From Marsupella aquatica (taxonomy: Eukaryota > Plantae > Marchantiophyta), in assembly GCA_973895155.1 (NCBI GenBank), contig OZ316892.1, positions 62,001 through 126,000 of the forward strand: a stretch of 64,000 nucleotides of DNA, given 5' to 3'. Position 1 is the first letter of the stretch; every line of letters begins with the position of its first letter. Positions 9,617-49,410 of this stretch are shown here, one piece after another. The position numbers were made by a program, and so were the translations under genes. The notes under the pieces were generated by a model, which saw only the letters and a program-made list of their open reading frames with translations, did no database searches and was not told the origin of the DNA.

Positions 9617-12600
9617 TTAATCCTTTAAATCTTTTGTTTGAAGGTTTCGCCACTTGTCTTTCAGATCAATCTGTGTCAAAGTCAATAAAACATGATAGAT
9701 GAGCATGCAATTTGTCTTGTGTGCAAGGGTAAATACAGTAATACAAAAAGCAGGATATAACCATAGAAGACTTACTTCAGACCGGTCAATGAAGTGTGCA
9801 CCCTCGGCAGCAAGAATTCAACTCCACTTGCCTGGTCCAAACCTGAAATTAACCTTGGCTTAGAAAACCTCTTGTTCTTAGAGAAAAACACCAATTAATA
9901 CCAGCTAGGTAAGATATTACGTCAATGCATTTTGATTGATAAGTCATAGGTTCACTACTTGCCTACGGACTGCCTGTTTGAGACAATTTGTTTCCTCTTT
10001 AGACCACCTTTTAGTTGCCCTACGAACACGTATTAGACCATTGGGGCCTTCTTTCATGACTGCCCGGGTGATCAATTTGGAATTTTGTATTCCAATACAA
10101 TCTTGATGCAGCCTCAACCTCTTAGATGACGGGCTGGACGTATCCTCCTTCCCTGTGCCCTGCAAAGACATCCAATTTGTAATACTCCAGCAAGGATTGC
10201 AAACATTACAAAATACAGTACATCTTCCATACTGTACAAGATAGATGTTGTTGTCACCAATGATTAAAAACAAGAAGTTTCCTGCAGACCACCTCACCTT
10301 GGCACTCGAAGTTGCTAGATTGCCCTCCTCTGCTTTGTCTTTGGATTGGAATGGGGTGATTAGGGACCGAGAAGGAGGATTTAGCAAATCTATAATTCGT
10401 TTTCTCCCTAAGTTCTTCCCCATATCACAAATGCCTTTGTAATTCTCACTCTGTGGGGCTGGAAGCTCAACTAATCTCTGTTCTTCCGGATGAATTAGGT
10501 GTTGGACTTCATTTGATGATTGTTGCATTTTGCTAGTAGTAATTCCTCTGTTGAGCATATTAACCTCTGTGCTCACCTCTGTCACAAAAAAAACACCACA
10601 TTAGAGACTTCAATTCTCCATCAACAGCACATACAAAGACCTAGGAGTCTGAAACTACTCTATACACTATCAATCTGAACTAATCAATGCTAGTTCTAGT
10701 GCAATTTTGGTCAAACTGTAAGACTACATATGAGTTGAACTATGACATTGGTGAGCACTACATACCATACACTGGTTGGGAGGATGCCTGCTTTGGCAAC
10801 AATACAGGCGCCATGATCTGCTGGTTGGCCACCTCCAAAGGAGCTCCTTCATTCTCATCTATCAAATTCTCTTTACCTGTTCCAATCTCCACCCGCCTTT
10901 TTCTATAGTGATTCAATTTAGACTGCAAATACAACCATCCAATTAACGGAAATGATATTTCTCCACCACAATATGTATATTCACAATGACTTGCAGCAAA
11001 CAACAAATCAGTCCCACCTTTTACCAAATCTGATAGCTAGTGAGAGAAGACAAGGCCCAAACATTGTTAAAACAATGCATCTGTCTCCTAGCCTGTGAGT
11101 GCGGGACAAAACCAATGGAAAAATCCCAAAATTTTTGTGCACCACTCCATCGAGCGGTGCAAATTAAACCAACTATTTAATAAGACATTTAAGAAAACAA
11201 TCCTTTGGAGGAGGAGGGGAAGGGAGAGAATCATGAGCTAAGTTACCCAAGGTTGATCCAAATAAATACCTGAAGCTCAACTCGGACTTCCTCGGCAACA
11301 CTTTCATACTTGTCTTTCAAAGTATCCACATCCCTACGAACTGCGGCCAAGGTGGTCACCATCATTTCATTCCTTTGTAGGAGTAGCTCCAACTTGACAC
11401 CTATTGTGTTGTTTGCCTCTACTTGCATCCTCAAGTTGGTCAGTATTGTTTCGTTCCTCTCTGTCTGTAACTCCAAGGTGGTTGTCATCTTCTCATTCCA
11501 GTCTCTCTGGCGCTCTTTCTCTATTTTCAACTCACCTACAACCTCCATCAAGCACAGGCATGATGTACAACAAGATCTGACTGTTTTTGAAGCTTCTGAA
11601 ATGCTCAAGGGGAATACATTCTTTAGTGTGAATATGTCAGAGTGCTCCAGCAACTCCGTACCAGTTGTTGTCAACTCGATACCAAATTTTGTCTTCAATT
11701 TTCCCTGTTCTCTATCCTCTGTTCCAGGCGTTGCTTCCGCTTCGCCCAATGTCTTCCCTGATATTTCATGTTCTTTACCCCCCGACAGAGGTTTTGTCTC
11801 TTGAAGACTCAATGTCTTCATGGACGTTGCATGATCTTCATGGATTATCCCAACCTTTGTCACCATCTCATTGTCACAAGCTCGATTGAACAAAGAACCA
11901 TCTTGGTGTCCGTTCACAAAAGAACCATCTTGCTAACCTTGCGGCTCTGCTCCACTAGTTGAGAATAGCCCGAGAAGTCCTCCACTGCTACATGGATCAC
12001 CCTCATGCACACTAGAAACAACAGTTCCTTTGGCATGTCCTGACATTGCATCATCGTCGTTCATAATTTGCAGATGCATTGTGAGATGTTTTTGTCCTGT
12101 GCAGTTCTCCTCCATCCCGTGGTTTTCCACTCCATGATGCTCCACACCCACTTGAGTAGATGTTTTCCAATGGAATACTTGTGGCCTTGGCAAAGACACA
12201 ATTGAAGGGGACTTCTCACTCAACAGAATTTGCAGATGGGATCCAAAATTGTAAGTGCAAGTCATGTTACCTTCGGAGATTTGTTTCCGGGCTCTGCAGA
12301 GGAGGTCGATCAGTCTCCCGCCAAGATATTCTCCCCAATTCTTCCTACTACTTGTTTCTTCAACTTGCTTTATCTAGCACAAAGACACATCGGCCCTGCT
12401 CCCCTTAAAGTGAAGAGCCCCCAATTGAAACTCTAGCCTCTCTCTGATTAGGGAATCTTTGCAATATTGCAATGAGTAAGAACCATTGCTGTTCCTTTTA
12501 ATCCCTGCGAATGACCTTGGATTATATCGAACTGCTTTTTGCTCAAATGGCTCCCCTGACCCTTGCAACTTGAATGTCTTCTTGATAGAATCCAAACTCA

Positions 12601-12832
12601 AGTCTATTCTTCCCCCACAAACCCATGTTTCAGATTGTTCACTGTCAAAGTTCCGGATGAAATCTATCATGTCAGACTTAGAATGACTCTTAGTGTCCCA
12701 ACGAACTCCCAAAACAAAATCTGCAAGCCCATTGTGCTGAAGATATTCTGAATGTCGCGCTTGACACAATGTCGTCACCACAAGTGGTGGGATAAAATAG
12801 AATGTTGGCATCGCCATAGGCTTGGAAGACAT
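9617..12832 (-). pseudogene. Multi-exon chimeric gene: transposon-type N-terminal domain + coiled coil + C-terminal TRF-like (telobox) Myb/SANT domain; carries in-frame stops
   Basis: ORFs 12374..12832, 11933..12265 and 11243..11917 are in one frame, separated by single TAG codons. The last exons splice to give KRWSKEETNCLKQAVR|RFGPGKWS*ILAAEGAHFIDRSE|IDLKDKWRNLQ (exons ..9963, 9842-9776, 9670-9617). LKDKWRN is the telobox signature. There is a TGA at 9818-9820. Confidence 0.75.
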
Positions 12833-12999
12833 CGTTGTCCCTTCTTCCCACTAGTAGGCATGTACACCAAACCTCTGGTGGCACACTATCTTGGTTTGAT
12901 ATCAGTTTGATATGTAGACAAATGTCATGCTAGACTGTGGTGACAATGAGAATGGTCGTGCTCCCCAGGTTCTTACAATAGTCTACGAGCCCATTACAA

Positions 13000-13470
13000 T
13001 AGTGTCAATAACACCAAGTAATTAACATTCATCACCAAGAATGCTAAAATGCATTTGAGTCAGGATATTCGGGTGCTATGGTGATTGGCGCGAATGAAAT
13101 CCGCCACTTCCCCGGGAAAATTCACAATGTCTATGCACACATGAACCCACTGTCCCTACTTGTCAACCTTGGGTTCAACTAGAAAGAATTGTAGGGAACT
13201 AGATCCAGAGGCACATAGACATGTACAGTAATAAATCTGGTGTACAGTGTCAATAACACCAAGTAATTAACATCCATTGCTCAAAATGCTAAAATGCATT
13301 TGAGTCCAGATATCCGGTTACTATGGTGATAGGCACAAATGAAATCCACCACTTCGAGGAAGATCCACAAAGTCTATGCACGCAGGAACCCATGTACTGT
13401 CCCTACCCATCAACCTTGGTTCAACTAAAAACAATTGTAGGGGAACTAGATCTAGAGACACGTAGCTATG
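13000..13470. repeat. Diverged tandem duplication of ~245 bp
   Basis: 'agtgtcaataacaccaagtaattaacat...aatgctaaaatgcatttgagtc...tgaaatcc.ccacttc...tctatgcac...gaactagatc' occurs at ~13001 and ~13246. Confidence 0.75.
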
Positions 13471-15094
13471 TTTTGCAATAAATCTCGTGTGATTCAATCC
13501 GCACAATTATGTTTAACTATTCAATCTGTACAATTATGTTTAACTACAGTATAATATTCACGCTTATTCTATGATCCAAGCCGTCACCAAAGATTTGCTC
13601 TAGAGGGATAATAATGTGGATTCCTATGAATCACCTAACAAGAAGCGGGCACTAACTAAGTACAAGTGTCCCTAATTAAGGCTTCCATGCTTGAATTGGT
13701 CTTAGCCAATAGGAAGCAAGACCAAATTAACAATACTTTTTGTGTCCTCATGAATACATATATTCGAAGCTCTTAATCTACCACCAATGCTCTCTCCCCT
13801 TGCACCAGCCTAGGTACTTACATTCTTGAGGAGACCCATCCAGTGTGTCTAGAATGTTATACACAAGCCCAGGGAGAAGGAATTTTTTGCCCATTCCCTT
13901 TCTTTCAGTACACCTCTGTATGACATAAATTCCCATTGCGACATTTTCCTTTCTAGCATAGAGTGGGAGCCACACAAGGAGCCATGGCTCCACCCTTTCC
14001 CATTCTTTCAGTGTGCCTTTGGTGTAGAGCAGGAGCCAAATATTGGAACTGTGTAATCCTGCACACCTCTAAGCTTGAACTCAGGCAGGCTAATTTCATA
14101 GTGTGTCGGATTGGGATATGACAAAAAGCTAAAATCTCAGCCCACAAGATGCAGGTAATTAAGATTCCTAGTTAGAGAACCCCTCCCTAACCCTAGTACT
14201 TCCGGAATGACATACAAACAGGCATACAAAGGCCCAAAGGAAAATGAATTTTTTGCCTTTCCCAATCTTTCAGTTCTTTTAGTGCACCTTTAGCGTAGAG
14301 CAATCCAAAAGGATGAATAGGGCGTGTCAAAGTGTTACAGTCCAAAAAAATAAATCAAAGTGTTATGGGATTTGTATTTTGGTAGCCCATAGTGATTTTG
14401 TCTTGACTGTAATAGTGTTTTATGACCTGAGCAATAATTGAGTTACATCTATGCAGCTTTAACACTCCCTAATGGAATCTTGGAACTATGTAATCATGCA
14501 CCTCAGAGCTTGAACTTAGGTGGGCTAACTTCATGGTATGTACCTTTAGTATAAGGCAAACAAATAAAATTCCAGCAGACAGGATCATCCTAATTCACCA
14601 TGTACAAATATTGAGGCGAGACCAAGGAAAGAACTGTACACTCCTTGGGACAAATCAATAGTAGATTTATGAAGGTGAGTACCTTAACATCAAAATTCCC
14701 CCTTTCTTCCCACCTAGTACATGTAAAATATTCATAAATCTAATGATAAAAATTACAACTTACAACTGCATTTCGGTACTCAGATCTGAAATGGTTGGTG
14801 TACTATTTGACCGGAATTATAATTTTTACTGAATTAGAATTAAAATCTTGAAAAAATTTATGTGGATTTGTTTGCTACAGTGTGGGAAGATCTAAAAAAA
14901 TTGACACCATAAAATTGAAGTTTACACTTTATTGGATTCTTTATTATGAAATATTCTTGAACTTTTTGTTAGAAAAGTTCTTAAACTAAAGTCCTCAAGG
15001 TTTTGAAGGACACTGTTTTTGAATGGCTATCAAAGATGTCACCTTTTGGATGTGGTTACAATTATCCCTATTTTCATTGCTCCCCGTGTGAATG

Positions 15095-15520
15095 AGGGTA
15101 CTCTTATCTCCTGAGGGTACCCTTGTGCTTGAGGGTACTCTTATCAGTGAGGGTACTCTTATCAGCGAGGGTACTCTTATCAATGGGTACGCTTATCAAT
15201 AATGGTACTTTGATCAATAAGGGTACCCTTATCAATGAGGATACTCTTATCTCCTGAGGGTACCCTTGCGTATGAGGGTACTCTTATCAATGAGGGTACT
15301 CTTATATCAGCAAGAGTACTCTTATCAATGAGGATACTCTTATATCAGCAAGAGTACTCTTATCAATTAATGGGTACCCTAAACCCTAAACCCTAAATCA
15401 ACAATGGTACTTTGATAATGAGGGTACCCTTATCAGTGAGGGTATTCTTATCTCCTAAGGGTACCCTTGTGTTGGGCCTTGTGCACGAGGGTACTCTTAT
15501 TAATGAGGGTAATTTTATTA
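15095..15520. repeat. Minisatellite, ~18-bp core GAGGGTACTCTTATCAAT with variants
   Basis: Many consecutive 'gagggtactcttatc' / 'gggtacccttatc' units. Confidence 0.9.
15377..15397 (+). repeat. Interstitial plant telomeric repeat (CCCTAAA)3
   Basis: The sequence reads ccctaaa ccctaaa ccctaaa. It is absent from the matching position of the second direct repeat. Confidence 0.85.
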
Positions 15521-15968
15521 GTCATAGCAAGCAACAAAGCAGGCAGGGAACCCCATGAAGGCGCCCCGCACCGGCAGAAGGACTCCGAACATACTGAAAA
15601 GACCCTAAACCTCACTAGACCAACATTTTGGGTATTGCATGGACAAATACTAGCCAAAGTACATGCCTAAATTTACCTGCTCTGTATTAGTTCCCTAAAC
15701 CAGGGGTGATTTTTTTCATCAAATCCATACATTGTATCCTAGTTTTTTTCACACATGATGTAAACCTACATAATGTGAAAGTGGGAGAGAAGACTTATGA
15801 TTTGATACAATCTTCATTTAACTATAGTACAATATTCACTAATCATCAGTATATATGGTAAGCTCCAATTCCTCCATATAGTATGTAGACAAAAATTGAA
15901 GCAATCGATGAAATAATTAACAATTTCATTACACTTGATATTAATTACAGTGCTTCCTTACTTCTTCC

Positions 15969-18900
15969 TCACCAGTACTCAGGATATTTTGTTTTCACAA
16001 TAGCCGCAGCAAACAAAACAAAGTTATTCACTACTTTCCCTGTACCTATCTGCATGAACCAAGTAGCAAGTTCTTCATCACTTTTCTCTCGAATTTCCGG
16101 AAATTCCTTGAACAATTCTGTTTGTATCCGAGAAACCCTCCAGCCTTGCCACACAAAATGTCGAAGACGCTCGCCTGTTCTATCATTGCACTGATCACCA
16201 TATGGTCCTTTATGAATACACATTCCAGTGACAACTACAGTATGTTGAAAGTGACACTTAAAACAAGTCCATGCATTTTGAGGGAATGTGTTCTTGCAGG
16301 TCCGGGCCTGGTGAGATCCTAGACATCTAAAACACAATGACCGCAATATAGGACAGTTGACAGCATTGTGTACTTCTTGCTCCCTTGATTCAGGACACTG
16401 ACAAATTAAGCATTGACTTCCATCACCCGCAAAAGTTCTGATGATACGAAGATCCCTTTTATCACTCTCAAAAGATCGGCTGTGTGCCATAGCCCTTAGC
16501 CTTGCAACCACAGGCTCTGCTTCATGTACCCCTTGTATAATTGGGGTCATCGGCAAGGTGTTTCCTTGTCGTCTTGGCATGGGAGTGGCTGGGGGTTGCG
16601 TAGGAGTTTCATATGTTGACTCATCCGAACCCCCTCTTCCTGGAATTCCCATTGAAGATGATGCTACCTCATGTGGTGGAATTGAGGCTGTTCTACAAGG
16701 AATGTCTTGTGTGAACACCTCAAAGTCGACTATGTCCACACCTGGGCTGCACATCACAGATGCTTGGGAACACAAGTCACACAAACTAGAGAATGGAATA
16801 AGATGACATACTTGAGGTTTTCCATCGACCTGGTCATGGAGCCCAAACCGACGACATGATGTCTTGTTCTCTATCCATTTGTGTGAAGCCGCTGTGGTTG
16901 AATCAATGCGTTTGGCCATCTTGCGATAAGCAAGGTTGGTCACCACATAACTCATCGCCGGGAGCCCATCACGTCCACCTCGTCCAGATTCTTGGTGGAA
17001 GTGTTCCAGAGACCTGAAACTACCACGATGAATGACAAGCTTAACCCATTTATAATTGTATCCACTACTAATCACTCCGGTGGCCACCATGATCTTACAA
17101 GCACCTGACGTCCAAGAACTCAATGAAGCCCTCTTCACCGCTATGTCCAGATGCGCATGCACATACACACATGACATTTCTTTCCCTTGGAGGATTCTTG
17201 TAGTTGATTCCACCTCCTCGCGGGTTAGACAAAATACTAGGGCCCTCTCTTCTGGCAAAGAATATGCTCTCCAATCACGCAGAAGACTCACTATTTCTTG
17301 ATCCATCATGTTATGGCCAACCTCAACAACGGCATACCTGATGTTGGGTCTCACAGTAGGACAACGAATCCACACCATCTCTGTAGCTAACATCCGCTCA
17401 ATATCAACTTGATTCTTGGGTGCTAGGGATGCAGTTAACCCTATGATTTGGCAATTAATTTCCATGAGGCCAACCAACTTTTTCATTGACGGTCGAAAGT
17501 CAGATAACAGGAGGTGCACCTCGTCGTAGACAATGGAATGCAAGGAACCACTGCATTTCAACTGCTTTGCCAAGATAATGAATAGTTTGGATTCTGCAGC
17601 AATCTCCACAGCCACAAAAATGATTGAAGGAGGTCTTGCCACTTCGACTGCACCATCCTTATACACAACACAACTAATATTTGCTTGTTTGCATTCCTCT
17701 ACGTGGCCCTCTACTAGGATAGTGAGTGGAACGATCACAATCACCGTCCTATTCTGTCCCATGGTGGAAGGTGCCATGAACACCAATGATTTTCCAGACC
17801 CAGTGGGTAGTATGGCAACAAAGTCCACCACATTATCTATGGATAGAGAAACTGCTGTTGCTTGTTCCGACAATTTCCACTGTTGATGACCAAGCCTTCT
17901 TAAGGCTTGACAAGCTCCAGCAGTCCTATTGAGACAAACTTGTAGCAGGGGATCACTTTCTCCACTTGCCAATAATGTCTGATGGATGTTTGAGTGGAAA
18001 ACTGTAAACCGCCTCCTTTTGGGAATTTGCCTCACCTCATATTCAACACCTCCAACGGGTCCCAAAAAGTCAAAAGGTGCAGTCGACATTACCTCGGGCC
18101 TCTGTGACCCACTGAGGCCAACCAACTTGTGCCACAATCGTGACACCAATACACACCCTCTTAAAATATGTCCATCCATGCCTCTAGGATCCTTTGTACT
18201 ACGAGCATAGTGATGGCCGACCGTAGCTGTTTCATGACCACCTGCTACATCCACAAGGTCTTCTTGTAAATGGGCCTTACAAGCTCGTATATTCTCACTC
18301 CAATGTGCTGCCACATGCCAGTACTTTGCAATCCCAAATGGAATGCCACAGTGCTTTTGGAAAGCATCTAATACACTGGCAGAAAGGTCTGCTCCCGTCA
18401 GCCTCTTGTCCATGGCCACAAACCAACAATCCAGGTACATTGCTGCAACTTCCGGACCCCACAAAATATTCGCCACGAAAGATTGTACTGGGCGAACTAG
18501 ACATAACAATTTCACAAATAGGTGGCTTTGATTGTCAGGAATGAACCGAGCAGTGAGGTTTATAGGTTTCCCAGCATTTGCACATTTGTGGTAGGATTGA
18601 TAAACCATCAGCGTATCAGATAACCAAATGAATGCTCTATCCCCAGTGGCAGTGTTGCGAATCAATAGGCTCGAGTATTCTTCCCCTCTTGCAGGTAATC
18701 CAGAACAGAAATGCAGAAGTAGGTTCAATAGCCTCTGTAGCTTGGAACATGCAACCATCCACCTGTGGAGTGCAGGCATGTTCCAAATAACTCCATTTAC
18801 ATTGTCCACTCGTAGGATGAAATGTGCCATCATCATAGTATTACTGAACATGTGGTTCAATAGATCCTTTCCATGTTGTTGGAACTCTGGATTTCGGGCG

Positions 18901-20927
18901 TCTATGAGAAAAGAATAATGCACTTCGTCTGTCTGGACAGCATCATGAATGCAGCCCTTGGTACTCACCAAATTGAGTATCCATTCAGATTTGAGACCGA
19001 GAAGAACATCATGGTTGAGTGTTGTTGTCGCTTCTTCAACAATGGCACGGATCATATCCCTGAACGCATTCAATGTGATAATATCACCGTCAATTGAGCA
19101 TGCTGTTTGTGTATCGTCCATGTGTATGAGATTTGGTCGAGCATGGGTGCCTCGATTAATTGTTTTTGCCAGTCGCATGTACTGCCGAACTTGAGTAATC
19201 GGCGTGTCCAATGCCACATCGCTCACGTATTTCTCCAGGATGTTTACTTCATTCCCAGGTAGGCCACGTGGGTTTGGATGCCAAAGAGCTTGTGAGAGTT
19301 CCATCAGGATTGTACATCTTGCCCAGTAGTGAAGTATTGCCAATATTTTGGTGATTTTCCCAATTTTGCAAAATGCATACCCTGTGGATTGGGAACCCAG
19401 CCCGTCACTCTTTAGAGAGTGGAGGATAAAGAACCGAGTGAGCAAACAATCCGCCGGTGAACGAGCATACAACAGCTTCGGAATTTTTGGAGTCCAGAGA
19501 AGAAGTAGTACTCGATGGATATTTGTGAGATCAATATCACCTTCTTCTGCAGGCCGCGCCTCACTTGGTTGGCCTAATTGTGCCAATAATTGTTGCAGGG
19601 CACCTTTTAGATCCGGCCTATCTGTGTATATAACACAATGTTGAGGCCGAGAATCATAAGTACAAGAACGAACGAGGCAAAGAAGAAGGGAAACCATTCC
19701 AGCACAGTATTGTGGAACAGTGTTTTTCTCTTGTAGTCCACCCAATCCCCTTGTGACATCGGCATTTGGAGTCGGCTTCATCACCATTCTTTGCACCCTA
19801 TAATCTAAATTTCCACTAAGAATATTTCTTGTGCATGTCATGTACGCACGGACCACAGTGCCCAAGTACGATAGTGAAGACCCAGGGTCGGCGGGCCTTG
19901 GGGGTTCCATCTCAGATTGCACTTCAACAAATGGCACACCTTCAGGCATGAACTGGGATGCAATCTCATGCCACCTTGATACCCTTAGCCACGGCGACAA
20001 TTCCCTCACTGGAGGTGCAAGATCAGTCTTTAATGACTGTAGATGAGCTTGAAAGACTTTTGCGACTGCACCTCTCGTACTCTGAGCTACTGCATCGTCC
20101 GCAAGGTACACATTGCCATGGTCCACTCCATAGAATTTGCGGCCGACTCCCTTGAAGAGGGCTTGCACTTGACATGGAGTAGCAATGTCCTTGAAACCAA
20201 GGTGGTTGTGTTTCATACATCGGTGATTTGCCATCGTCCGCTGTGATCTACAAAAGAAGATACATCTCGAGCAAGAGAATCCCCAATGAATGAGGACGCC
20301 CGGAACTAGAGACAACAATTCTGCAATTGGATTGATTGTGTATGGTAGTAGGGACGCATCATTTGTACGTGTGAACAACACCCCCTGCAACAAAACCGAC
20401 AATTGCTCTGGTGTTGGATTCGTGATTGAATTTTGTGTTGCAACTCTCACCCTGCCCATGTTCCTTCGATGACTTCCAACATGACGGATAATGCTACTTC
20501 CTTCCGTGTGCTGAAGGGCTGTATGGCATTGCAAGCATACTAGAAGAACAAGGTTGTTGTGGTGAACAATGCAAAGCTTTGCATTTCTCAACATGTCTGG
20601 TGTTGCTAACAGGTCATGATCTAGGATAGTGGTGGGGACTTGGTTGACAATTGGATCGTCTACATCCATGAACGGGTCAACTCCTACTGCTTCATTGTGT
20701 TTCCTTTTGTAGTGAAGATGTAAACTATCACTACGGGGATAGGACGAGGAACATGTGGCCATAGGGCAATGGAATCGACCATCCTCTTCTTTCTCAATGA
20801 TCTGGGTTGTGCCATTGTTGAGCTGCAATTGGTAAGTAGAACGGTGAACTGAGCGGGAATGGGAACTGCGAGAGTTTGCTGACTGAAATTCTTCCCCACA
20901 CTGACTACATCCAAATACTGTCACCAT
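15969..20927 (-). CDS. 1652-aa protein resembling telomere-linked helicases (TLH): C2H2 fingers, putative tyrosine-recombinase-like domain, RecQ-family DEAH helicase + RQC Zn site, C-terminal Zn knuckles
   Basis: N-terminal fingers are CSQC..HSRSVH and CPMATC..HYKRKH. YR-like motifs are LHFCSGLPARGEE, SYHK, KYWHV and GGHETATVGHHY. RecQ motifs are LPTGSGKS (I), VIVPL (Ia), YDEVH (II), LTAS (III), TVRPNIRY, LVFC (IV), MVATGVISSGYN (V) and QESGRGGRDG (VI), followed by CRR..C..CDLC. A splice acceptor (tttttcatgcag) directly precedes the ATG. Confidence 0.85.
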   Translation of the reverse strand: MVTVFGCSQCGEEFQSANSRSSHSRSVHRSTYQLQLNNGTTQIIEKEEDGRFHCPMATCSSSYPRSDSLHLHYKRKHNEAVGVDPFMDVDDPIVNQVPTTILDHDLLATPDMLRNAKLCIVHHNNLVLLVCLQCHTALQHTEGSSIIRHVGSHRRNMGRVRVATQNSITNPTPEQLSVLLQGVLFTRTNDASLLPYTINPIAELLSLVPGVLIHWGFSCSRCIFFCRSQRTMANHRCMKHNHLGFKDIATPCQVQALFKGVGRKFYGVDHGNVYLADDAVAQSTRGAVAKVFQAHLQSLKTDLAPPVRELSPWLRVSRWHEIASQFMPEGVPFVEVQSEMEPPRPADPGSSLSYLGTVVRAYMTCTRNILSGNLDYRVQRMVMKPTPNADVTRGLGGLQEKNTVPQYCAGMVSLLLCLVRSCTYDSRPQHCVIYTDRPDLKGALQQLLAQLGQPSEARPAEEGDIDLTNIHRVLLLLWTPKIPKLLYARSPADCLLTRFFILHSLKSDGLGSQSTGYAFCKIGKITKILAILHYWARCTILMELSQALWHPNPRGLPGNEVNILEKYVSDVALDTPITQVRQYMRLAKTINRGTHARPNLIHMDDTQTACSIDGDIITLNAFRDMIRAIVEEATTTLNHDVLLGLKSEWILNLVSTKGCIHDAVQTDEVHYSFLIDARNPEFQQHGKDLLNHMFSNTMMMAHFILRVDNVNGVIWNMPALHRWMVACSKLQRLLNLLLHFCSGLPARGEEYSSLLIRNTATGDRAFIWLSDTLMVYQSYHKCANAGKPINLTARFIPDNQSHLFVKLLCLVRPVQSFVANILWGPEVAAMYLDCWFVAMDKRLTGADLSASVLDAFQKHCGIPFGIAKYWHVAAHWSENIRACKAHLQEDLVDVAGGHETATVGHHYARSTKDPRGMDGHILRGCVLVSRLWHKLVGLSGSQRPEVMSTAPFDFLGPVGGVEYEVRQIPKRRRFTVFHSNIHQTLLASGESDPLLQVCLNRTAGACQALRRLGHQQWKLSEQATAVSLSIDNVVDFVAILPTGSGKSLVFMAPSTMGQNRTVIVIVPLTILVEGHVEECKQANISCVVYKDGAVEVARPPSIIFVAVEIAAESKLFIILAKQLKCSGSLHSIVYDEVHLLLSDFRPSMKKLVGLMEINCQIIGLTASLAPKNQVDIERMLATEMVWIRCPTVRPNIRYAVVEVGHNMMDQEIVSLLRDWRAYSLPEERALVFCLTREEVESTTRILQGKEMSCVYVHAHLDIAVKRASLSSWTSGACKIMVATGVISSGYNYKWVKLVIHRGSFRSLEHFHQESGRGGRDGLPAMSYVVTNLAYRKMAKRIDSTTAASHKWIENKTSCRRFGLHDQVDGKPQVCHLIPFSSLCDLCSQASVMCSPGVDIVDFEVFTQDIPCRTASIPPHEVASSSMGIPGRGGSDESTYETPTQPPATPMPRRQGNTLPMTPIIQGVHEAEPVVARLRAMAHSRSFESDKRDLRIIRTFAGDGSQCLICQCPESREQEVHNAVNCPILRSLCFRCLGSHQARTCKNTFPQNAWTCFKCHFQHTVVVTGMCIHKGPYGDQCNDRTGERLRHFVWQGWRVSRIQTELFKEFPEIREKSDEELATWFMQIGTGKVVNNFVLFAAAIVKTKYPEYW

Positions 20928-38590: not shown

Positions 38591-40339
38591 TCGGCAATTT
38601 GAATTACTTGTTCCTAGGCTGCTGCAAAGTGCAAGCAAGTGGGGACGTGGGTTCCCACTTTAGTTAGACAAACCATATCGAAGAAATTCATTGAACATGG
38701 GACGAACGAAAGTATTGTGCTTGCAAAAAGAATAGAGACAGTTTGTGTCTATCCCAACTTCATATTCTCGTTGCCTTTGGCAACAGAGAAGAAGATTTAA
38801 TTGCACAATGAATTGGTAATACAGAGCGTACAATGGTTTTGGTGGGGACAGTTGCCAACTCAATAACTTTGAGCTTTTAACTATGTTATGGCCTACCTAA
38901 TTATCTCTGAAAGTGCTCAGACAATAAATGTTCACCTATTGCTGTAAAGTATAAACATTGTGCACGTTCAGTTCCGCTACTTGAATTTACTAAATCAAAT
39001 TGGCAAGTGTTGGATTACACATCACTTCCCAAGTTAAAGCAACTTAAATTAGCTGGAGTGAGGGTCGCCACCTATTGGAATTTGGAACTGGAGTGCTTCT
39101 TGTGCACCACCATCAGCTTTGCCTTGGCCAACTTTTGGTGTAGTCCTCCCATCAAGCGTGCGCAGCCCCTGAGACACGAATTGCAGCTCATGAGCTTCAA
39201 ACGCTCTACAAGCATTACAAGCATTTGTGTGGCAATTCTAATGGTTGTCGTGAGCAATTGAAGGATAGACTTATACTGTAGATAATAATGCCGGCAGCCC
39301 CATCCCAATTTCCTCATTCCAATCAGTAGTGTGCTCTGATTTATTCCACAGCTCTTATGGGGCCCAATAGAAACTTCCAACCATGGTAACTCAAATGAGC
39401 AAGAAGCAAAAGAGGTATTCATCAATTTGACTAACCGGTGTTGCGACAACGCTCGCTCGAAAGGACTCAAATAATTCCAATGCCAATTTTCAAGTGGCTC
39501 GCTCAGCCACTCGCTGCGAGTTTAGGGAGCTACCTTCGGTTCTGCTGTTGCATGAAGACACGGAATTGGCCAAAAAATTTGCAAACAGTTATGTGAAGGA
39601 GAAACGATGCAGGTGGGGCAAGTCAATGGCCCGAGCCAAACTCAAAGCATTGATTCAGAGCTTGAAAGCGAACAAAATGGCAGCTAACTAAAAAGTTTTG
39701 CTGTGGTGGGTGTGTTGACCTCGCCACACAACAACTCATGGGACGGTAGGGTGAAACAAGTTATAAAAAGTTAAGTTCCAAGATTTTTGGCTCTTAACTT
39801 TCCAGTGAAGTACTCGCAAAATGACGGACACTAACTAGAGATTGTTAGTGATTTAACTATCAGATTTAACTATGAGTGCGAGTTGAGCCGGCAGGAACCC
39901 TGCGCCTATTTTCCTTTGATTTAACAGGATTAGTTGAAAAGATAACCCACCCTAAGAAATTTAACTAGGCGCAGGGGGGTTCCGGACAGCCCAAATGTCT
40001 ATTTTTACTTAGAATCTCATGAACTTGAGCGAGTATTTAACCAAAAAGTTAAGTGCAAACACACATGGAACTTATCTTTTTTTCACCCCCGCACTCACAT
40101 TAATGTTTGTCGTGGTAGAAGAGCAGAGAGCCAGAGCCAGGCACTCTTTCAGTCCCACTTTGTCTTGGCTTGGGTTTGTTACTTACTATGCTCCATGTTG
40201 ACGACATTGCCTACTCCTTGTTCCTCCTCAGACCCAATGACATCAGACTTTTAACATGACGGGTTTTTCAGTTAGAACTGGGGATAGGAGAAAAAATTGT
40301 CTTTAATCAATGCAAATGATCAGAACAGCCACACATTCA

Positions 40340-40548
40340 AGCACATAATTATATACAAGCCATCCGGATAGTGCACTTGTGATGCTCGTTGAACTCAAAC
40401 TGCCATCGGAAGCTATGGACAAAATGCTTGACAGAATTACACAATCACTTGTTATACATAGTTGATATATTCCTGAATTTATTTTTCCTGTCCACTTGGA
40501 AATTGCACAGATTAACAGAAGTATCCATGAAGGTCTATCATCGTAGAA
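40340..40548 (+). repeat. Dispersed copy of 36730-36945
   Basis: 'agcacataattatatacaagccatccggatagtgcact...catcgtagaaag' is present at both sites. Confidence 0.85.
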
Positions 40549-43029
40549 AGAGATTTCCAGCAAAAACTTGTAAGAAAATTGCAAGACGTGAGGTGCTCAA
40601 CAGTTTTTTGTGTCTTGGCCAGTCTTGGGAGGCCATAGGCATTCGTCTATTTGCAGGACATTTGTTAGCTTTTTTGGGTTTGCATAGATTACGGTACGGT
40701 GGCTATAGAGAGCAAATTGCCCGCCATTGCTTGCGGATATGAAGGAAATGCTAAGTCGAGCAGCAATTCCAACCAGAAGAGAGAAGAGACGGGTACAAAG
40801 GAAGATAGCAGGAGAGCTAGAACTATAATGCGACAGAAGTGGCAGTAAGTTAATTTGAAGGCTGCTTTCACGCTCTGTCAAAAAATATGAAAAAGTTTTG
40901 TCTCGGTATGGACATCCAACGACAACTGCTCCAAAGATCTCCTCTCAAGGCACTTGACAAACATGCCGTAGTGAATGACTACAAAGCAAACTTTGACCCG
41001 TGTAACCAATCAGACTTCAAGCAGTTGGAATCTATCTACATCAAATGGGGCGACCCGGTGATCTATGAATTTATCAAGTTCATTGAGGCGCCGGTGGGTA
41101 AATTTACTTGGGCTAAGCTAGCCTCCGGTATTGAGCATCATCACATTTCAGCTCTGGTGGAATCCACACTCAAGATTTTCCCAACGGCTTAGTGACTCCG
41201 AGGTGTCTACTATCCTCTTCGACTATGTGGGCAGGAATCTGCGGTCAGTGTTGTTTTTGCTTCTCCTACAGGCACTTACCGGCCGCGTGTTCTACATCAC
41301 GGCCCCATTATTTTGACAACCTGGTAACACAATTCAACATTCGTGAAGCAGGAACTCAACATCCCACACATCAAAAGGAACGGCCGGATCACGAGGTCCT
41401 ACAAGTGTGCCAAGGGGTGGAGTATAAGGCAAGGCAGAAGGCAGCTTTTTGGCAGGCGTAGGATGAGGAGCAGCAACAACGGGAGGAAGCTGAATTACAA
41501 CACCTGGCATTACGGGCCCAAGAGTTTGAGGCGGATCGGGCATAGACCCAGGTGTGGATTAGCATTGAGTCTAGAGAGTAAATAATATATCACAACTGTA
41601 CAGAGTGAATTAGTTCTAATCAGGAAGCCTGGTCTTCTTTAATTTGTATCTCATTTCCCACGTCCAAAATTGAATGGTGACACATTTGATGCTAACGGAG
41701 TTTAAAGGTTTCAACATGAAAGCTATGGGAGTCTACGGTTTAACCAGAAATGTTATGGGAGCCTCCACTTTAACCAGAAATGTTGTGGGAGTCCATATGC
41801 TGAAACTTGGAGACATACCATGCATCGCATGTGAGACACAGCCTTTACATAAGAGTCTTGTATGGTGGGTTGGACAGTGAAGGCAATTTGGGTCCTAGGA
41901 GTGTCTGAATGGAGTTGCGACACAGATGGAGGTGAGTAGCAAGGCATGAATACCGCAACCATGGATGTTGTACAGAAGAGAAGCTCCATCACTGCACACT
42001 TGGCCTGAAACCACGCCACGCCACTGCCACCAGTAAGCATCAAAAACGCAACCATTCGGAAACGCCTTCGCTCGAAGACTGCATCCGACAATGACTCTAA
42101 TCCATCACTTGTTGCAATTATTGACGACGTCAGTACGCCATCCAAGCGACACAAGATTCAAGATGCAGATTGAAGGGAATTTGGAGGTGGCGAGCACAGT
42201 CAAGGACCAGATTGAAGGCCAACAACAAGAATTCTCGAAGGCCAATGCTTCCCGACCAAAATACCAACCCAACAATAATGCAGAAGGGAATTTGAAGGTG
42301 ACGAGCACATTAAAGAACCAGATTGAAGGCTGGTACAGGAATTCTAGAAGCATTGACCAAGCTTTGTTTCCTTTGTATTTCTCACGAACCTAATTGAATG
42401 GTGACACTTTTGATGCTAACGGAGTCCAATGGTTTCAACATGAATGTTATAGCTGCAAAAGACTTTTATTGGAAATGTTATTGGAGTGTGGGACTACAAG
42501 TGAGTCACAATGAATGCTAGTGGTGTATGAACACTTAAAAAATAATGTTATGGGAGCCTACGGCAACCACCCATAAGTCACCCTAATCAATACTAGCGGA
42601 GTTTAAAGGTTTTGATAATAATGTTGTGGGAGTCCAAATGTTGAAACGTTGAGACCGTGCACTGCATGTAGGAGACCATGCACCGCATTCCCTAAATACC
42701 CTAAAATGGCCTGAAGACCGGCCTCATTGCACGCGCTGTGCAGGGAAGATATATACAGTCTACTTCTAATCTTCTTCCGTAACAGCCTTTCTCGGGCAGC
42801 CTTTTGTAGTAGTATTCAACCAACGAGCGCCTGCACGAGAAACTGAGAAAGTGCTGTGGATGAAGTACTGTAGTTGATTAGATGCTTCTGAGAGTTTGCA
42901 ATAATTGTCCAAACTTGTCCAAACCCACTTCACCACAATGAAAACAATGTAGATAAGCGTGAAATCTTGGCAGCTCTCTAGACAATCTCATGTCCCTGCT
43001 GTGCAACTGGGAGGGTAGGGTACGTTTAC

Positions 43030-43300
43030 TGCCTTCGCGGTAAGGAAATTGTGACACTGAAATGTAAGGTGACCGACTCTCCCGCATTTCTTACAGGCAC
43101 CACGGACGTCATCCGCGCTCGAGTCCGTGAGACAGGCTAAGGCGAGAAGCCCTTGGAAACTGTCGTACGCATTCTGCTGGTCCTCTATTATCCCGCCTTC
43201 TGGAATAGATGCACTCGCGCCCCCCACTAGAGCACCGCGGAGGGCATCCGCTTGGAATGCTTGCGCTGCCTTCTGGTCCGGAGCATAAGGATCGTAACTT
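43030..43300 (-). pseudogene. CXIP4: Internal fragment of a CAX-interacting protein 4 (CXIP4)-like CCHC zinc-knuckle gene
   Basis: Translates YDPYAPDQK...NAYDSFQGLLALACLTDSSADDVRGACKKCGRVGHLTFQCHNFL, which matches the conserved CXIP4 N-terminal region as I recall it. It lacks the MPATAGRVRMP start and the Arg/Ser-rich tail. Confidence 0.85.
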
Positions 43301-44063
43301 TGATTTGAAGTGAATTATAAATTCTTCTCCCCACACTTCAGGGACTTTGCAATCTGTTCCAACGCAAAGGACCCTGGTGAGCTCAGCTCAACTCAGTGGG
43401 GCCGTAGCATAAGTAGAAGGTCCTTCATTGATCTTCTAGCTCCCAACACTTCAGGCACTTTGCATGAGTCTCGTCGTAGTAGTACGTACCCGTAAATTGT
43501 GGCGCTTGATTCAATTGTTGAGTGAGCTTTACTTCTCCTTCTCAACAAGAGGGGTTGCACACCAACTTTGCCACAACACTTGCTACCACCCATCAACAAG
43601 CTAGTTGATTTTGAGCACAACCTTTACATGGTATGCTTCTTAGTTGGTATTTTTGAAATGTCTTTTAATTGGAAGTTCACACCCATTGATTCAGTCCTTA
43701 GATTGATTTTTGGTAGGGTGTAGCTCATATAGAAATAGTGATACAATGATTGTTTCTTTCACGTTCCTAACCTCACAGAGTTTACTTTAGTCTCTTTTGG
43801 ATACCCTGTTACAATCTACAAAGTAGTTATTTGCTTTTAGGTAAACATTTGTCTTGCATGTCATTTGTACTTTGCTAGGTTGGAAGTCTAAATGCTAACA
43901 CTTTGGCAACAATAGGTTCCAGTTTCCTATGTTAAATGTGTACAGTCAGAAGGGAGCCAGAGTATATTCTTAAGGGCTTTTATTGTTCAAGGACTTACTG
44001 CAAGCAAGTGAAACTTGTTAGTTAAGTACAAGCTCATTTTGGCATTAATTTGATGTTTGTTTG

Positions 44064-47000
44064 TGTGACACGGGTAACGTGTCACTTGACCGAACCCAGG
44101 TCGTAGATTAGGACTTATACGGTCATTAGGACCGTAGCCATAGCATAGAATAGCACGTATAGCCGTCAAGTTGCCATTATGATTAGATTAGGAGTAGGTT
44201 AAGATAACCGAATAATTACGAGTTCAGGAAAGGGATTATTACGCATGACCGAGGTAAGGTGGCGGCAGCGGAGTAAAAATCAGTTAGAAGAATCACGCTT
44301 GGACCGAGATGCCGACTTCAGCTCGTTATCAATGACCAAACGGCCTGACCTTCTCACGCTCGGGCTAGTCCGGGCACCCCCATAAGAGAGGAGCCGATGG
44401 CACTGTGGGCCATTCGCTCACGTTTACCTTTTTGGAATTCACGGACGCTGCCATCCGCTCGCCTTTTTGATTGAATCTAGTCGACCTTTACGAGGAAATT
44501 ATCGAGGGAGAAGAGCGGAATGTGGCGAGATTTAGTCAGGACGAGCGAGGCCTCCGTGAAAAAGGACCAGCCAGGTGGGAACGTGGACGCAACGAACCGG
44601 ACTACGAGGTTAGTATGACCCTCACAACCTTGGGATTTTGGACCTTGTTTGGCGAGGTAGGTGCTAAGTTCTCCGAGACTTACTGGTACTCTTGCCCCGA
44701 GAAAGCCGCTTACGAACGAAGGTACGCAAAGCTGGTAACCAAGGTAGCACTGGTTAATTGCGAAAGGACAGCCATCACCAGGGATTCTAGCTATAATGAG
44801 CTGCGAGACTACATCACCGAACTATATCTCAGCGAGGAAGGGCTTAGATCGGTAGCAGAGGCGATTCTTGAGGTTCCAGCTAAGTTCTTTAAGCTGAAGG
44901 GCAACCAGCGGCTTACTCAAGCGGAGTTTGACAAGATTCCGGGGTACCTAGACCAGCAGATCGCAGCCGAAAAGCGCCAAGAAGACATCAGCAGACAACG
45001 GGAAGCGGCGCGTAATCTCACGTTCCTTGGGGAAAGCTCCAACGCCTTCAACTGGGATATGGCTACCCCAGCGCCTCAACCGATGACCACCGGAGTACCG
45101 CCGAACCAGTCCCAAGTCCGTCCAGTAATCAACGCGGAGTGTTCTTCGGGTTCCGAGCGAGCTAGTCTGCAACTCGAACAACATCCTCGTAAGTGGTCAA
45201 GGACTACGATGGCCCCCGAATCAACACGGACCGACGCCGTGCCTGCACCTGCCCCGGCAAACCCCCCGGCCAACCAGACCCGACGGCCCCCGGATAACCC
45301 GAAGTCCAACTTATTACAGGTAATCCGCTCCCCGAGGTAGTCTGGATCGCGATCAAGAAACTTGAACATGCGGACTATCTCAAGGAGCATCAGTTGGAGC
45401 GGTTCGCCCACTTACTATGGAGGCCGTGCACCGCTGGGCCGAAGGAGATTTGTGAGTTCATCTCCAATTTCGACACTGATGCGTCAACCACCAAGGTTTC
45501 GGGGCAGACCTTATCACTCACGGAGCATCGGTTAACGCAAATTTTCGGCCTACCAACCGGGCCGGTGCCGGTGGAAATCCGAATTCGGGATAAGGAGTAT
45601 ACGCCGCGGCACTTCAAACCCGAGGGTAAGACAGACAACGGATACAAGCAGGGGGCGTGCACCAACTTAACCTGTATGGAGCGGCTTAACTTCATACGGA
45701 CTACCCTACACATGATTGAGCCACGATCCGAGATTTCCCTCTGCACGATAGTGCAGGTGGAACAGTACAAACGATGAAACTGGGCCCAATTCTTCTACCG
45801 AAGATTCTCGGGGGAGCTGAAGCGGGCTCAGGGTGGTATGGCTATTGGAGGGAAGACTTACTTGGGGAGTCATATCGCCATTATCCTCGCCTGGTACAAG
45901 GCACGGCGGGAGGCCAGAGGAAAGAATACGGCCACCTCAGCCCCGGGTAATGTCACCCCCGCCCCAGAGGAGGCAACCCCGACTACGCGGACTACTGTCC
46001 CTCGGACAAACCCCGAGCCGGAAGCCCCGACTAATACTCCGCAACCGCCCCCTGTGGAAATTCCACCGCCTCCTTCCGTTGAGCCTCTGCTACCTGCAGT
46101 ACAACCACCCCCAATCCCTCCACCACCTGAAGAAACCTTCCCCTCCCCAGCGCTGACTACGGAGGAGCTCATTGCCCCTGCCGAGGAACCACCGGTACCC
46201 GAGAGGATGGAGGACTACCAAGTAGCCCCGGGGACCATGGCCTACGACCTGGTCCAGAAGTTTAGCCAGACTATGTCTGGGGAGTTGGCGACATACATCG
46301 GACAACAAGTCTCGGCGTACTTTCAGCCAGCCTTCTTCATGTTAGAGCACCAACCACGGATCGTCAGCCGCTTGGAAGAAGAACTCATGGCGAAGGGGAA
46401 TGAGATCGGGCGTCTCCAGATGCTGGTAGAGCACCTCGAGGAGGAGGCAATGACCCGCCGCAAGGATTTAGTCCGCACTGTCGAACAGAAGGACGGACTA
46501 ACCCAAGAGTTAAGCGGAGCGCAGGCCGAACTCAAGAAGCTGGACGACACCGTGCTTCAATTACGCTCAGAATCTTCGGCTCGGGTTACCAGCCTGACCG
46601 ACCTCAACAAACAATTCTTGCAGGCAGCACAGCAGGTGGCTAGTCTCTCCGCCGAACGAGATAAATTGCTAGCGCAGGACCAGGTCCATCGCGACGCCAT
46701 CGACCAGCTCAACTTGGAGGTGGCGCGGCTCCAGACTGAAGCCGACGAAGTTGCAAACAAGGCGAAGGAAGCATTACGGGACAACAAGGCTTTGCAGGAC
46801 CGCGTCACCCTGCTCGTCCTCCAGCGGGGAAAACCTGGGCCCACCTCTGATCAAGGCGGCTCGAGGTCTCGCCCCGACAAGGGGACCAGCCCTGGTCCAA
46901 CCACTGCACACACGTAAGGGGTAGTTAGCGAAGGGTAGAAGCAGGCGCCGCGCGAGGCGGTTAAGTCAGTGGCATCTTTTAGTTAGGCGTAACGACAGAA

Positions 47001-47891
47001 TGACTGTCATTAGGCGCCGATTAGCGACAGTAGGAAGAATTAGGGCCGGTCAGTTAGGATCAGCCAACGTAGGATTGAGTCCATCAACGGACTAGAGTTT
47101 GTCAGTAGGCTTGGCCGCTGCCATTCCGGTTGGCACACTCGTAGTCGACGGTCAACCGGTCAGTGCAGCGCGACCGGTAGTCAGCAGTTAGTTAGTCAGT
47201 AGGTAGTACCCCGGAAGGTAGTATCCTCCGGTTCTCTTCCGCTATGGTAGTATTTAGGCTTCCCCTTCCGCGATGGGAAGGGGGAGAAGGCTTAGTTATC
47301 TCAGCAGAAGAAAGGCGAGGCACGGGGAGTCCCGGCCTGAGTAGGGTCAGAGCGTACCAAGGAGTGAGAGCCAGAGTCGAGCTTGCTGGGCAAGTGCGAG
47401 GCAGGGCCTCGTAGAGACTGGGCATCGACTGCCGTTGGGCCTGCTGACCCCCTTTGAAGTCGAGTCAACTATGTAAACTGATGCTTCGCTGAGTAAATGT
47501 AGTCTTTTCCCCTTAATGTTTCTGAGAGTAACTGGTGTTGTGTGTATGCTTTGTCCGGGCAAAGGCGCCATTTTAAGGGACGTACCGGGTGCGGACTAAT
47601 GGTAGGGATTGCCACTCATTGCATGTCACAAGGTCCTGTCACGTCGATGGCTTGAAAAGCCCCAAGTCGGGAGTTAGTCCGCGTCACTAACTGAGGGAAA
47701 ATTCCAGCGGTGGAAAATAAATATACCTATGACAAGTACGAGTGTTATACCAGTAAGTATAGCGGCTTAGCCCGACTTAGGGCTATTGAAGGTCACTACA
47801 CACCTCCTTGCCCGAACCCTCACCCCTACTGGTGGTCGAGGTCGCACCACGACACTAACCCGGATTTAAGGCCCAGGGTAGGGGTGCGACA
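44064..47891 (+). mobile_element. 3.83-kb solo-LTR-like insertion (TG...CA, 5-bp TSD GTTTG) with internal ORFs
   Basis: Starts TGTGACAC and ends GTGCGACA (imperfect inverted ends). GTTTG lies at 44059-44063 and 47892-47896. GC content rises sharply inside. I see no internal terminal repeat, RT or integrase. Confidence 0.85.
44471..46917 (+). pseudogene. Disrupted ~800-codon ORF inside the solo-LTR-like element: unknown N-terminus, transposon-type domain, Pro-rich linker, coiled coil
   Basis: ORFs 44471..45340, 45394..45777 and 45838..46917 join via one frameshift (~45290) and one TGA (45775-45777). Confidence 0.7.
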
Positions 47892-48407
47892 GTTTGCAAT
47901 GAGCTCAAGTTGCTACGTGGAGCCCCAAATACTAACCTAGAAGTTGGGAAATCATACTTGAATTTCGTTTATTTTCTCTAAGGTGAGTTCCTACTATCAT
48001 TTATTTGTTTTAAGTATAATTCATGAAGGACATGGAAAAATAAAATAAAGCAAAGAAAATATAAGTATTTTAAAACAAATATTGACTATATTTTTCTACT
48101 TATTATCTTATGAATTTGCCTAACATATGTATTATAAAACTAAAAAATTGACTTTATTTTGAAATATATATCTGGCATGCTTTTCTGATTATTGTTATTT
48201 AATAGTTCCAGATAGTTTGGCCGGAGATATGTATTTTGAAATATGTATCTGGCATACTTTTCTGGTTATTGTTATTTAATAGTTCCAGATAGTTTGACTG
48301 GAGATATGTATTTTGAAATAAATATCTGTATAAATTAAAGTATGTTTTTGGAATTTTTCAGATGGCAAAACGAAAGTTTTGGAAAGTGAACAAACAAATG
48401 AAGGAAG

Positions 48408-49410
48408 ATGGCAAATATGAGTATGAGAATGAAATTTGCAATGGACGTTTTCATTCAAATTTTTTCAGCGATCATGATATTGCATCCACGTTCACAAAAG
48501 TTTGCCATGTTATTTCTTCTTCAAGAAGATAATATTTTTCAAGCATTTGTACAAAATGTATTGAATATTAAACATACTGTATCGAAAGCAATGATATATA
48601 ATGCTTACTATAGATTTAAAGAAATTGGACCACCAAAAACCTTTACTTCTTGCGCATGGGAGAATATCTGTGATATTCTTGATCATCATTATTCTTTAGA
48701 TTCAGTACCCTATAGTATAAGAAAATACATCCATTTTCTTAGGTCATCTACCTATATTGAAGAGTGTGTAAAAAGAGAAAAAAATATGCTAGAGAAAAAA
48801 GAAATGGTGTTTGAAAAAATTATTTCCCAATTTTGGTAGGGAAATGTGAATCCAATGGAATTAGTGCAAGGATTTTGGGGAAGAGTTGATGATGAAGGTG
48901 AATTCATTTTCTCATAACTAAAGCTCCCTATGTATAGGTGCCTCTTCAATTTCACATGGGGCTGTGGTAGAAATTTTAATGTCTATGTGGTTTAGATATT
49001 ATCCTACGTTATTACATACTTTTCTTAGATGTTGTAACCCTTACTTAGAAACTTCCCAATATATTAAGGAAGGTGTTGAGATACCATTTTTTGATAAGCA
49101 CATGAAGAAGGGACCTCCTGCTTATCAACTATTCATTACTAGAGATTATTGTTCACGTTTTCATGTAGACAATGATAGGACAGAGTGGACACTAGCATAT
49201 ACTAGTCACCCTGATGAACATATTTCACCAGTTGATTTTGTATTTGCCAAACATGGATTTATATTACCTTTGCATAATGGTGATCTATTTGCATTCAAAG
49301 GCAAACATCTCCATGGTATGGCTTTTAGAAAACCAACAGAAAATCCTGCATATATTGCAGCTTTAGTTATGAATAGTGGCTTAGGACAATTATTAAATAG
49401 AATAGAGTAA
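48408..49410 (+). pseudogene. 2OG-Fe(II) dioxygenase, TET/JBP-like; disrupted
   Basis: Motifs are HxD (RFHVDND, 49162-49170), FVFAKHGFILPLHNGDLFAFKG and a distal His (HLHG, 49312-49314), in double-stranded beta-helix spacing. The upstream ORF 48408..48839 continues through TAG (48837) and TAA (48915), then needs a +1 shift at the G-run ~48958-48961. Confidence 0.6.

Follow-up and report, generated by a model that had tools for sequence, protein, structure and literature searches.

Telomere-linked helicase (TLH) regions of fungi are, in the available text of their descriptions, multi-copy blocks with tandem repeats as well as interstitial telomere repeats, in which a gene combines C2H2 and DUF3505 (OrsD) domains, a TLH region and a RecQ helicase (PMC1635262, 10.1101/2024.02.27.582403, PMC5576322); the accessible part of this literature gives the function of the gene as unknown. 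Here we analyse a 64,000-nucleotide stretch from Marsupella aquatica (Marchantiophyta; contig OZ316892.1, positions 62,001 to 126,000; hereafter the window), which resembles these regions in gene layout and repeats and differs from them in its plant host, in having no adjoining telomere within the window, and in a spliced Myb gene and a 1245-aa gene that are repeated together with the helicase gene. In our view the window contains one decayed copy of a composite plant DNA unit of at least 19 kb, likely multi-copy and probably a transposon, and we put at about 50% the probability that this unit is a self-mobilising TLH-type giant cargo element, moved whole by its own predicted recombinase-helicase. 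The reading of the TLH region as a recombinase belongs to this analysis and not to the TLH papers: in the two that were searched for the word 'recombinase' it has 0 occurrences. A conserved recombinase-type active site, together with a plant repeat that in two organisms has amplified such a gene along with spliced DNA-binding and possibly remodelling genes, makes the question of TLH function testable; if the unit moves itself, land plants possess a giant recombinase-driven cargo element.

Among described mobile elements, Starships offer a working model for the proposed unit: they measure tens of kb, encode a tyrosine recombinase together with cargo genes and pass through a circular intermediate (PMC9156397; 10.64898/2026.09.21.753150). 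The first-pass annotation of this DNA had drawn that analogy, but the definition of a Starship does not extend to this locus: neither the window ORF (open reading frame) nor any of 43 relatives matches DUF3435, the recombinase forms a fusion with RecQ and appears to be internal to the unit, no target-site duplication was found, and the cargo is chromatin-directed in look. In a Starship the captain is the gene nearest the 5' end. Here repeated DNA continues for at least 2.4 kb upstream of the recombinase, to 23330, and the captain position would be lost if the SNF2 gene described below belongs to the unit. Cryptons, too, are DNA elements that encode a tyrosine recombinase, and they lack long terminal inverted repeats; the accessible text gives them 4-6-bp terminal direct repeats around a recombinase-only element and mentions no helicase (PMC3212892), from which the RecQ fusion and the length of at least 19 kb depart. 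VANDAL/VANC elements encode chromatin proteins that work on tandem repeats of the element itself (PMC5735166), and element-encoded oxidation of 5-methylcytosine (5mC) is described for TET-carrying fungal DNA transposons (PMC12730594). Those elements use DDE or HUH transposases; the window has no VANC-like match, and its TET piece is a broken and weakly matched sequence with no link to the unit. Accessory helicases of SNF2 and RecQ type have been noted in other transposons (PMC3627910). Among titles and the beginnings of abstracts, with most subscription papers and Repbase outside this scope, we found no work joining a telomere-linked helicase with a tyrosine recombinase and no description of such a giant plant cargo element; nor is one described in the accessible part of PMC13465315.

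Contig depth across the block and decay of the window copy

The left and central part of the block consists of four features.

2630-6367, minus strand: intact 1245-aa ORF with an N-terminal domain, an acidic tract and a coiled coil; no stops; part of the repeated unit
7845-8039, minus strand: fragment of a vacuolar sorting receptor (VSR), a host gene; Pfam VSR_TRX, E 5.9e-14; depth 130 in its bin in run X1, inside the plateau described below
9617-12832, minus strand: Myb gene; six-exon, 761-aa model with no frameshift; N-terminal domain, coiled coil and a C-terminal Myb repeat taken to be of telobox type; three in-frame stops
15969-20927, minus strand: predicted recombinase-RecQ ORF; 1652 aa, free of stops; Trp870 where relatives carry Arg

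Contigs from six coded public sequencing runs of three organisms were aligned to 15480-23330 (X1, X2, X3, X6) and 3000-22850 (X1, X4, X5); X1 is organism A, and X4 and X5 carry one organism code (organism B). The depth comparison ends at 23330, with the SNF2 gene, the satellites and the cyclin, CXIP4-like and TET pieces (24-49 kb) lying beyond it, and stretches uncovered in X5 and X6 were not counted as absence. In X1, 23 of the 28 bins over 3000-21535 have a depth of 95-161; the other five, in repeats, are higher, and none is lower. This plateau spans the 1245-aa ORF (95-139 from 3000 on, 2630-2999 being outside the comparison), the sorting-receptor fragment, the Myb gene and the recombinase-RecQ gene. 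It is still present at 3000, the left limit of the comparison, so that the repeated unit extends at least 6.6 kb to the left of 9617, where the first-pass annotation had placed its edge. The recombinase contig of X1 has a depth of 106.9, against 17-22 for diverged paralog contigs. Two diverged paralog joints recur at the same places in X1 (19.6 and 22.4) and X4 (42.9 and 40.7) and were therefore taken as a single-copy yardstick; contig depth is formally not copy number, but by this yardstick we infer about 5-7 copies in organism A and about 10-12 in organism B. The listed X1 contigs differ from the window at 0-3 positions per 540-1150 bases.

In X5, a single diverged type covers 3407-6613, 10288-13849, 15791-21560 and 22483-22850 at a depth of 54-68. 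Relative to the window it has diverged by 8.7% over the 1245-aa ORF (contig 3407-6478, depth 57.4, where 268 of 3072 bases differ), by 5.4-5.5% over two contigs of the Myb region and by 3.5% over the recombinase gene; the Myb introns are replaced while the exons remain alignable, and indels in the recombinase gene are net frame-keeping at four of the four listed sites. In run X4 the diverged type reaches a depth of about 390-440, beside an A-like type whose depth is 127-190. The 1245-aa ORF, the Myb gene and the recombinase-RecQ gene thus occur at matching multiplicity in two organisms. The first-pass proposal of one large unit holds to this extent for the Myb gene and fails for 44064-47891, an independent insert; the 1245-aa ORF, which also lies at recombinase depth, had been overlooked there. 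That annotation would have been contradicted by other copies lacking the neighbours of the recombinase; for the Myb gene the outcome favours it, since depth equals that of the recombinase in two organisms and the stops are sense codons in other copies. The co-occurrence of near-identical A-like and diverged types in X4, with the diverged type only in X5, could reflect a hybrid, a polyploid, a mixed sample or a recent transfer.

The window copy itself has decayed. Differences between the window and X1 fall at window A/T in 71 cases and at window G/C in 17 (p 5e-9), and among the listed changes, which are the best-supported ones, 32 of 40 of the A/T type stand in CG or CHG context, against a background of 23%. 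The lopsided split and the CG/CHG context fit the comparison of a methylated copy with several siblings merged in the X1 contigs and do not suit two alleles, in independent agreement with the copy number derived from depth. The likely history of the window copy is methylation and inactivation through C-to-T changes. It looks dead, with three stops in Myb, Trp at the catalytic Arg and five stops in the SNF2 gene. The Myb stops at 12376 and 11935 are sense codons in X1, X4 and X5, and the one at 9820 is sense in X1 and X4, X5 having no cover there; about three in ten of the listed Myb differences are nonsense changes. If stops arise from CAG/CGA-type codons, as assumed here, they are unevenly spread, at 8 of 98 such codons in Myb and SNF2 versus 0 of 86 in the 1245-aa ORF and the recombinase (Fisher p 0.008), which may be either chance or selection disabling the cargo.

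The same split bears on whether the window could be a single-copy pile of unrelated insertions, the plateau being the single-copy depth of an orthologous locus. We consider this very improbable, as alleles would split evenly and not 71 to 17, paralog contigs are 5-7 times shallower at the same joints in two organisms, and de Bruijn contigs abut along the stretch; for such a pile speak the independent insert at 44064-47891, the TET remnant, which differs in strand, GC and decay, and the formal distinction between depth and copy number.

The Myb gene model ends in RRATKRW...LKDKWRN, a single Myb repeat with an LKDKWRN-type third helix. Its Pfam Myb match (E 0.0013) covers only the first helix and lies under the curated cut-off, and a PDB search with the unspliced frame gave no match; we assume the telobox label and the identity of the LKDKWRN motif. 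The N-terminal domain is homologous to the ORF of the LTR-type (long terminal repeat) insert at 44064-47891 (E 1e-21); a homolog search with this shared domain found nothing among longer proteins, the only ones searched, which is weak evidence. The 1245-aa ORF matches no Pfam family, and its best Atlas score of 0.75-0.76 is a lead only. Between these two genes, X1 has a short high-depth repeat at 6972-7633 with ten loose ends at 7539, likely a small separate element within the unit.

The predicted recombinase-RecQ gene

The ORF at 15969-20927 encodes C2H2/OrsD (DUF3505) domains, a predicted tyrosine-recombinase domain and then a RecQ helicase, with Pfam matches to OrsD (E 2.7e-6), DEAD and Helicase_C. 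It has the N-terminal C2H2/DUF3505, conserved TLH region and RecQ motifs of the TLH family in a single ORF and is, judged by this layout, a member of that family. The nearest named relative of the helicase is a protein of the liverwort Calypogeia fissa (43% identity), and the region before the helicase can be aligned to fungal, Chondrus and Calypogeia proteins, no named TLH reference being among them. Scans of metagenomes with the recombinase-RecQ protein or a two-sequence alignment returned no relative. In X1, a second recombinase-RecQ paralog, about 85% identical, was observed at 16984-18772 with a depth of 17.5; we take it to represent an older subfamily.

The middle region has 1215 relatives at E <= 0.001. 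In an alignment of 112 of the best 150, five residues are nearly invariant among the rows that have a residue at the position: R747 (110/112), K781 (111/111), R870 (97/98), H898 (93/95) and Y907 (93/94). The catalytic order R-K-R-H-Y of tyrosine recombinases is thus present in 97-100% of aligned rows, although the first His of HxxR is not kept. At place 18320, where the window encodes Trp870, every covering contig in all four runs (X1, X2, X3, X6) carries an Arg codon. In an hhalign comparison with lambda integrase, the five conserved residues fall in register with what we take to be the catalytic ones, but at a probability of 0.3%. For a model of pLDDT 88, the five top-ranking Foldseek rows belong to lambda Int, Cre (three chains) and XerA, none significant (E 0.27-0.6, TM 0.22-0.25). 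Taken together, the conserved residues and the non-significant fold matches make it likely that the region is a tyrosine recombinase.

If so, movement of the unit would follow the route proposed for Cryptons, in which a recombinase drives excision and insertion of a circle, in the accessible text of PMC3212892, and for which a circular intermediate is reported in Starships, in the available part of 10.64898/2026.09.21.753150. The tyrosine-recombinase domain would excise and insert the circle, and the RecQ domain would unwind it or help to copy it. Telomere-type or satellite repeats would be the target of the Myb protein, one domain of which also occurs in an ORF of retrotransposon type. By analogy with VANC and the TET transposons, the cargo, broken in the window copy, may act against silencing. 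More tentatively, and in our view rather unlikely as a whole, TLH-type recombinase-helicases could power giant DNA transposons of a group not yet described, the plant one carrying at least 45 kb of purpose-built cargo (a Myb that reads telomere repeats, SNF2-RING, possibly TET-like) that aims insertion and holds off methylation at its own satellites; this would give land plants a counterpart of Starships and recast fungal TLH regions as mobile elements.

Repeats, junctions and the case against self-mobilisation

Three repeated segments flank the recombinase-RecQ gene.

14601-15793: R1, a repeat of 1.2 kb that contains an 18-bp satellite and three 7-mers of telomere type; it breaks off at 15793, about 175 bases past the recombinase stop codon
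21660-22858: segment X, upstream of the recombinase gene; depth 288-318 in X1, versus 106.9; loose end at 21660
22859-24099: R2, the other copy of this repeat; in organisms A and B its left end connects with the region upstream of the recombinase

R1 and R2 share 96% identity outside the satellite. Where the window has R1, organism B continues from 15791 with other DNA. The joint from 22850 to the left end of the repeat has a depth of 318 in X1, 1127 in X4 and 67.9 in X5, and a joint from 21560 to 22483 is found in X3, X5 and X6. We rejected R1 and R2 as LTR-like ends: they are 4% apart, ten times the 0.4% between the enclosed gene and its siblings, and are therefore not freshly copied ends, and organism B has other DNA at R1. 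A 62-bp sequence at 21582-21643, adjoining the 21660 junction, occurs inverted at 54745-54806 (89% identical); this pair (21582/54806) was rejected as terminal repeats for want of a target-site duplication.

Several observations weigh against a unit that moves itself. Contigs over 3000-23330 showed neither an end of the unit nor a target-site duplication, an empty site or a circle junction, and the recombinase gene appears to sit within the unit, not at its end. The identity of the recombinase reaches significance by no score, whether hhalign, Foldseek, Pfam or PDB profile, with no recombinase Pfam family in 44 proteins (the window ORF and 43 relatives) and no PDB profile match. No listed contig bridges two genes, in a comparison where contig depth is not copy number. 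Run X5 gives no cover at 88% likeness for the exons of the Myb domain or for the two spacers, 6613-10288 and 13849-15791; with other DNA at R1 as well, linkage and gene order in organism B are deduced from equal depth. Finally, the depth of segment X and R2 in X1 is about threefold that of the recombinase, and they are also joined to other DNA at 21660, so that this right side may be a separate, commoner module; the excess depth and extra junction point to modular or deleted relatives.

The telomere-type words bear on a different explanation. Besides scattered singles, the window has three plant telomere 7-mers within the R1 satellite at 15377-15397, which are missing at the corresponding place in R2, and no telomere array within 15 kb to the left or 43 kb to the right. 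Host recombination, through subtelomeric exchange or through duplication in tandem or of segments, could have spread a real multi-copy block in the manner of fungal TLH regions, with the recombinase as a resident or as a smaller element of 8-10 kb inside it. The TLH-type gene with its OrsD, C2H2 and RecQ parts, the 7-mers in R1 and the failure to find termini are in keeping with this, as are the fungal blocks themselves, multi-copy and bearing tandem repeats as well as interstitial telomere repeats in the portions of the papers available (PMC1635262, 10.1101/2024.02.27.582403, PMC5576322). We nevertheless regard host recombination as a possible, though not a probable, origin: the window lacks a telomere array and has an intact PPR-DYW gene at 58538-61741, the organisms' own amplified types, 3.5-9% apart, would need two separate amplifications, and the near-invariant catalytic-type residues in 112 relatives suggest an active enzyme.

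The SNF2-RING gene and the right-hand part

To the right of R2 lie the following features.

24999-25404: short repeats with the word ATTACCCC, common to the 116-bp satellite beyond the SNF2 gene
27724-34226 (at least), minus strand: SNF2-RING fusion in six exons, encoding at least 1955 aa with an N-terminal domain, SNF2 motifs and a RING
34769-38583: satellite blocks of 116 bp (x17), 153 bp (x5) and about 108 bp
39054-39182, minus strand: cyclin C-terminal fragment; Pfam Cyclin_C, E 5.4e-5
42991-43314, minus strand: CXIP4-like zinc-knuckle fragment; Pfam zf-CCHC_3, E 1.1e-7
44064-47891, plus strand: LTR-type insert of 3.8 kb, 55% GC; TG...CA ends, 5-bp target-site duplication GTTTG on both sides
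48362-49410, plus strand: remnant of a TET-like 2OG-Fe(II) dioxygenase; frameshifted, 29% GC

Most of what the first-pass annotation had named was borne out. The recombinase-RecQ ORF (15969-20927, 1652 aa, OrsD/DEAD/Helicase_C), the Myb gene (9617-12832, six-exon model of 761 aa, presumably telobox-type) and the SNF2-RING fusion (27724 to at least 34226, six exons, both motif sets) all lie on the minus strand as claimed; the satellites of the stretch have units of 18, 116, 153 and about 108 bp; the captured fragment at 42991-43314 matches zf-CCHC_3, the name CXIP4 being our assumption; and the Pfam scan of 27 long and 128 short window ORFs found no intact ordinary host gene in 9617-49410. A TET/JBP-like remnant is also present as a frameshifted piece, but its support is weaker than had been claimed: PF20515 matches at E 0.051, below the cut-off, with Atlas look-alikes at 0.91-0.95, and an HVD and a later His are present as candidates for the HxD...H metal ligands. 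It had no match in PDB and none in a homolog search among longer proteins only, which is weak evidence, and its membership in the unit is doubtful.

The SNF2-RING fusion has a layout that we take to be RAD5/16-like. Its model contains no frameshift, five TAG/TGA stops and one non-canonical CAA acceptor, and a coding 189-bp tandem repeat occupies 31345-33348; Pfam matches in this repeat and in the PPR protein were rejected as repeat artefacts (0 passing stretches). The 8-base word ATTACCCC has 16 occurrences, all on the plus strand and all in two blocks flanking the SNF2 gene, against 1.85 expected on both strands, array copies not being independent. The SNF2 gene is likely part of the same unit as the recombinase, because it lies on the same strand, shows the same frameshift-free TAG/TGA decay, lies beyond the repeat joined to the recombinase in both organisms and is flanked by the shared word. 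Its N-terminal domain matches the ORF of the LTR-type insert weakly (E 6e-4) and the Myb gene not significantly (E 0.07-0.1). Beyond the gene, 36731-38583 is partly duplicated at 40340-40554 and 41585-42634.

The insert at 44064-47891 has the end features of an LTR retroelement (TG...CA, a duplication of 4-6 bp), with no paired LTRs and no pol inside. Its observed/expected CpG ratio is 0.90, versus 0.28-0.75 elsewhere, indicating little CpG loss; it is a later, independent insert outside the ancestry of the unit.

Same-strand host fragments and patchwork satellites are typical of gene-capturing elements. The VSR, cyclin and CXIP4-like fragments and the satellites therefore raise the prospect that another mobiliser (a Helitron, a CACTA/MULE-type or an LTR element) carries the block, with the recombinase-RecQ gene and the host fragments as passengers and the true transposase missing from the window copy. 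The Myb N-terminal domain in the LTR-type insert and the greater abundance of X-R2 over the recombinase in X1 would suit this arrangement. Yet no Rep, DDE transposase or reverse transcriptase occurs in 9.6-58 kb among ORFs of at least 58 aa, and conservation between organisms is highest in the recombinase-RecQ gene (divergence of 3.5% vs 5.4-8.7%), and we think such a carrier most unlikely.

The margins of the window hold further remnants. At 1-2100 (minus strand) lies a Gypsy-type integrase remnant (rve, Integrase_H2C2) cut on its 5' side, followed by an ORF at 3-539 with faint likeness to the shared N-terminal domain (E 0.04). Viral contigs were scanned with this remnant in order to put a date on the left junction, and none matched. 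A plant telomere-type 7-mer at 2140-2146, near where the Gypsy pol likeness stops, marks a possible left end; no hairpin was found at the guessed junction near 2140 (z +1.1). On the right, 47321-47473 and 51896-52047 form a 153-bp inverted match (78%), and about 51-53.4 kb, with its 13-bp arrays, is likely a second, older LTR-type remnant. A zinc-knuckle ORF at 54827-56320 (plus strand) is followed by decayed frames that presumably represent gag-protease remains. The gene at 58538-61741 (plus strand) is an intact editing-factor gene of the PLS-type PPR-E-DYW class with a five-fold internal repeat of 303 bp.

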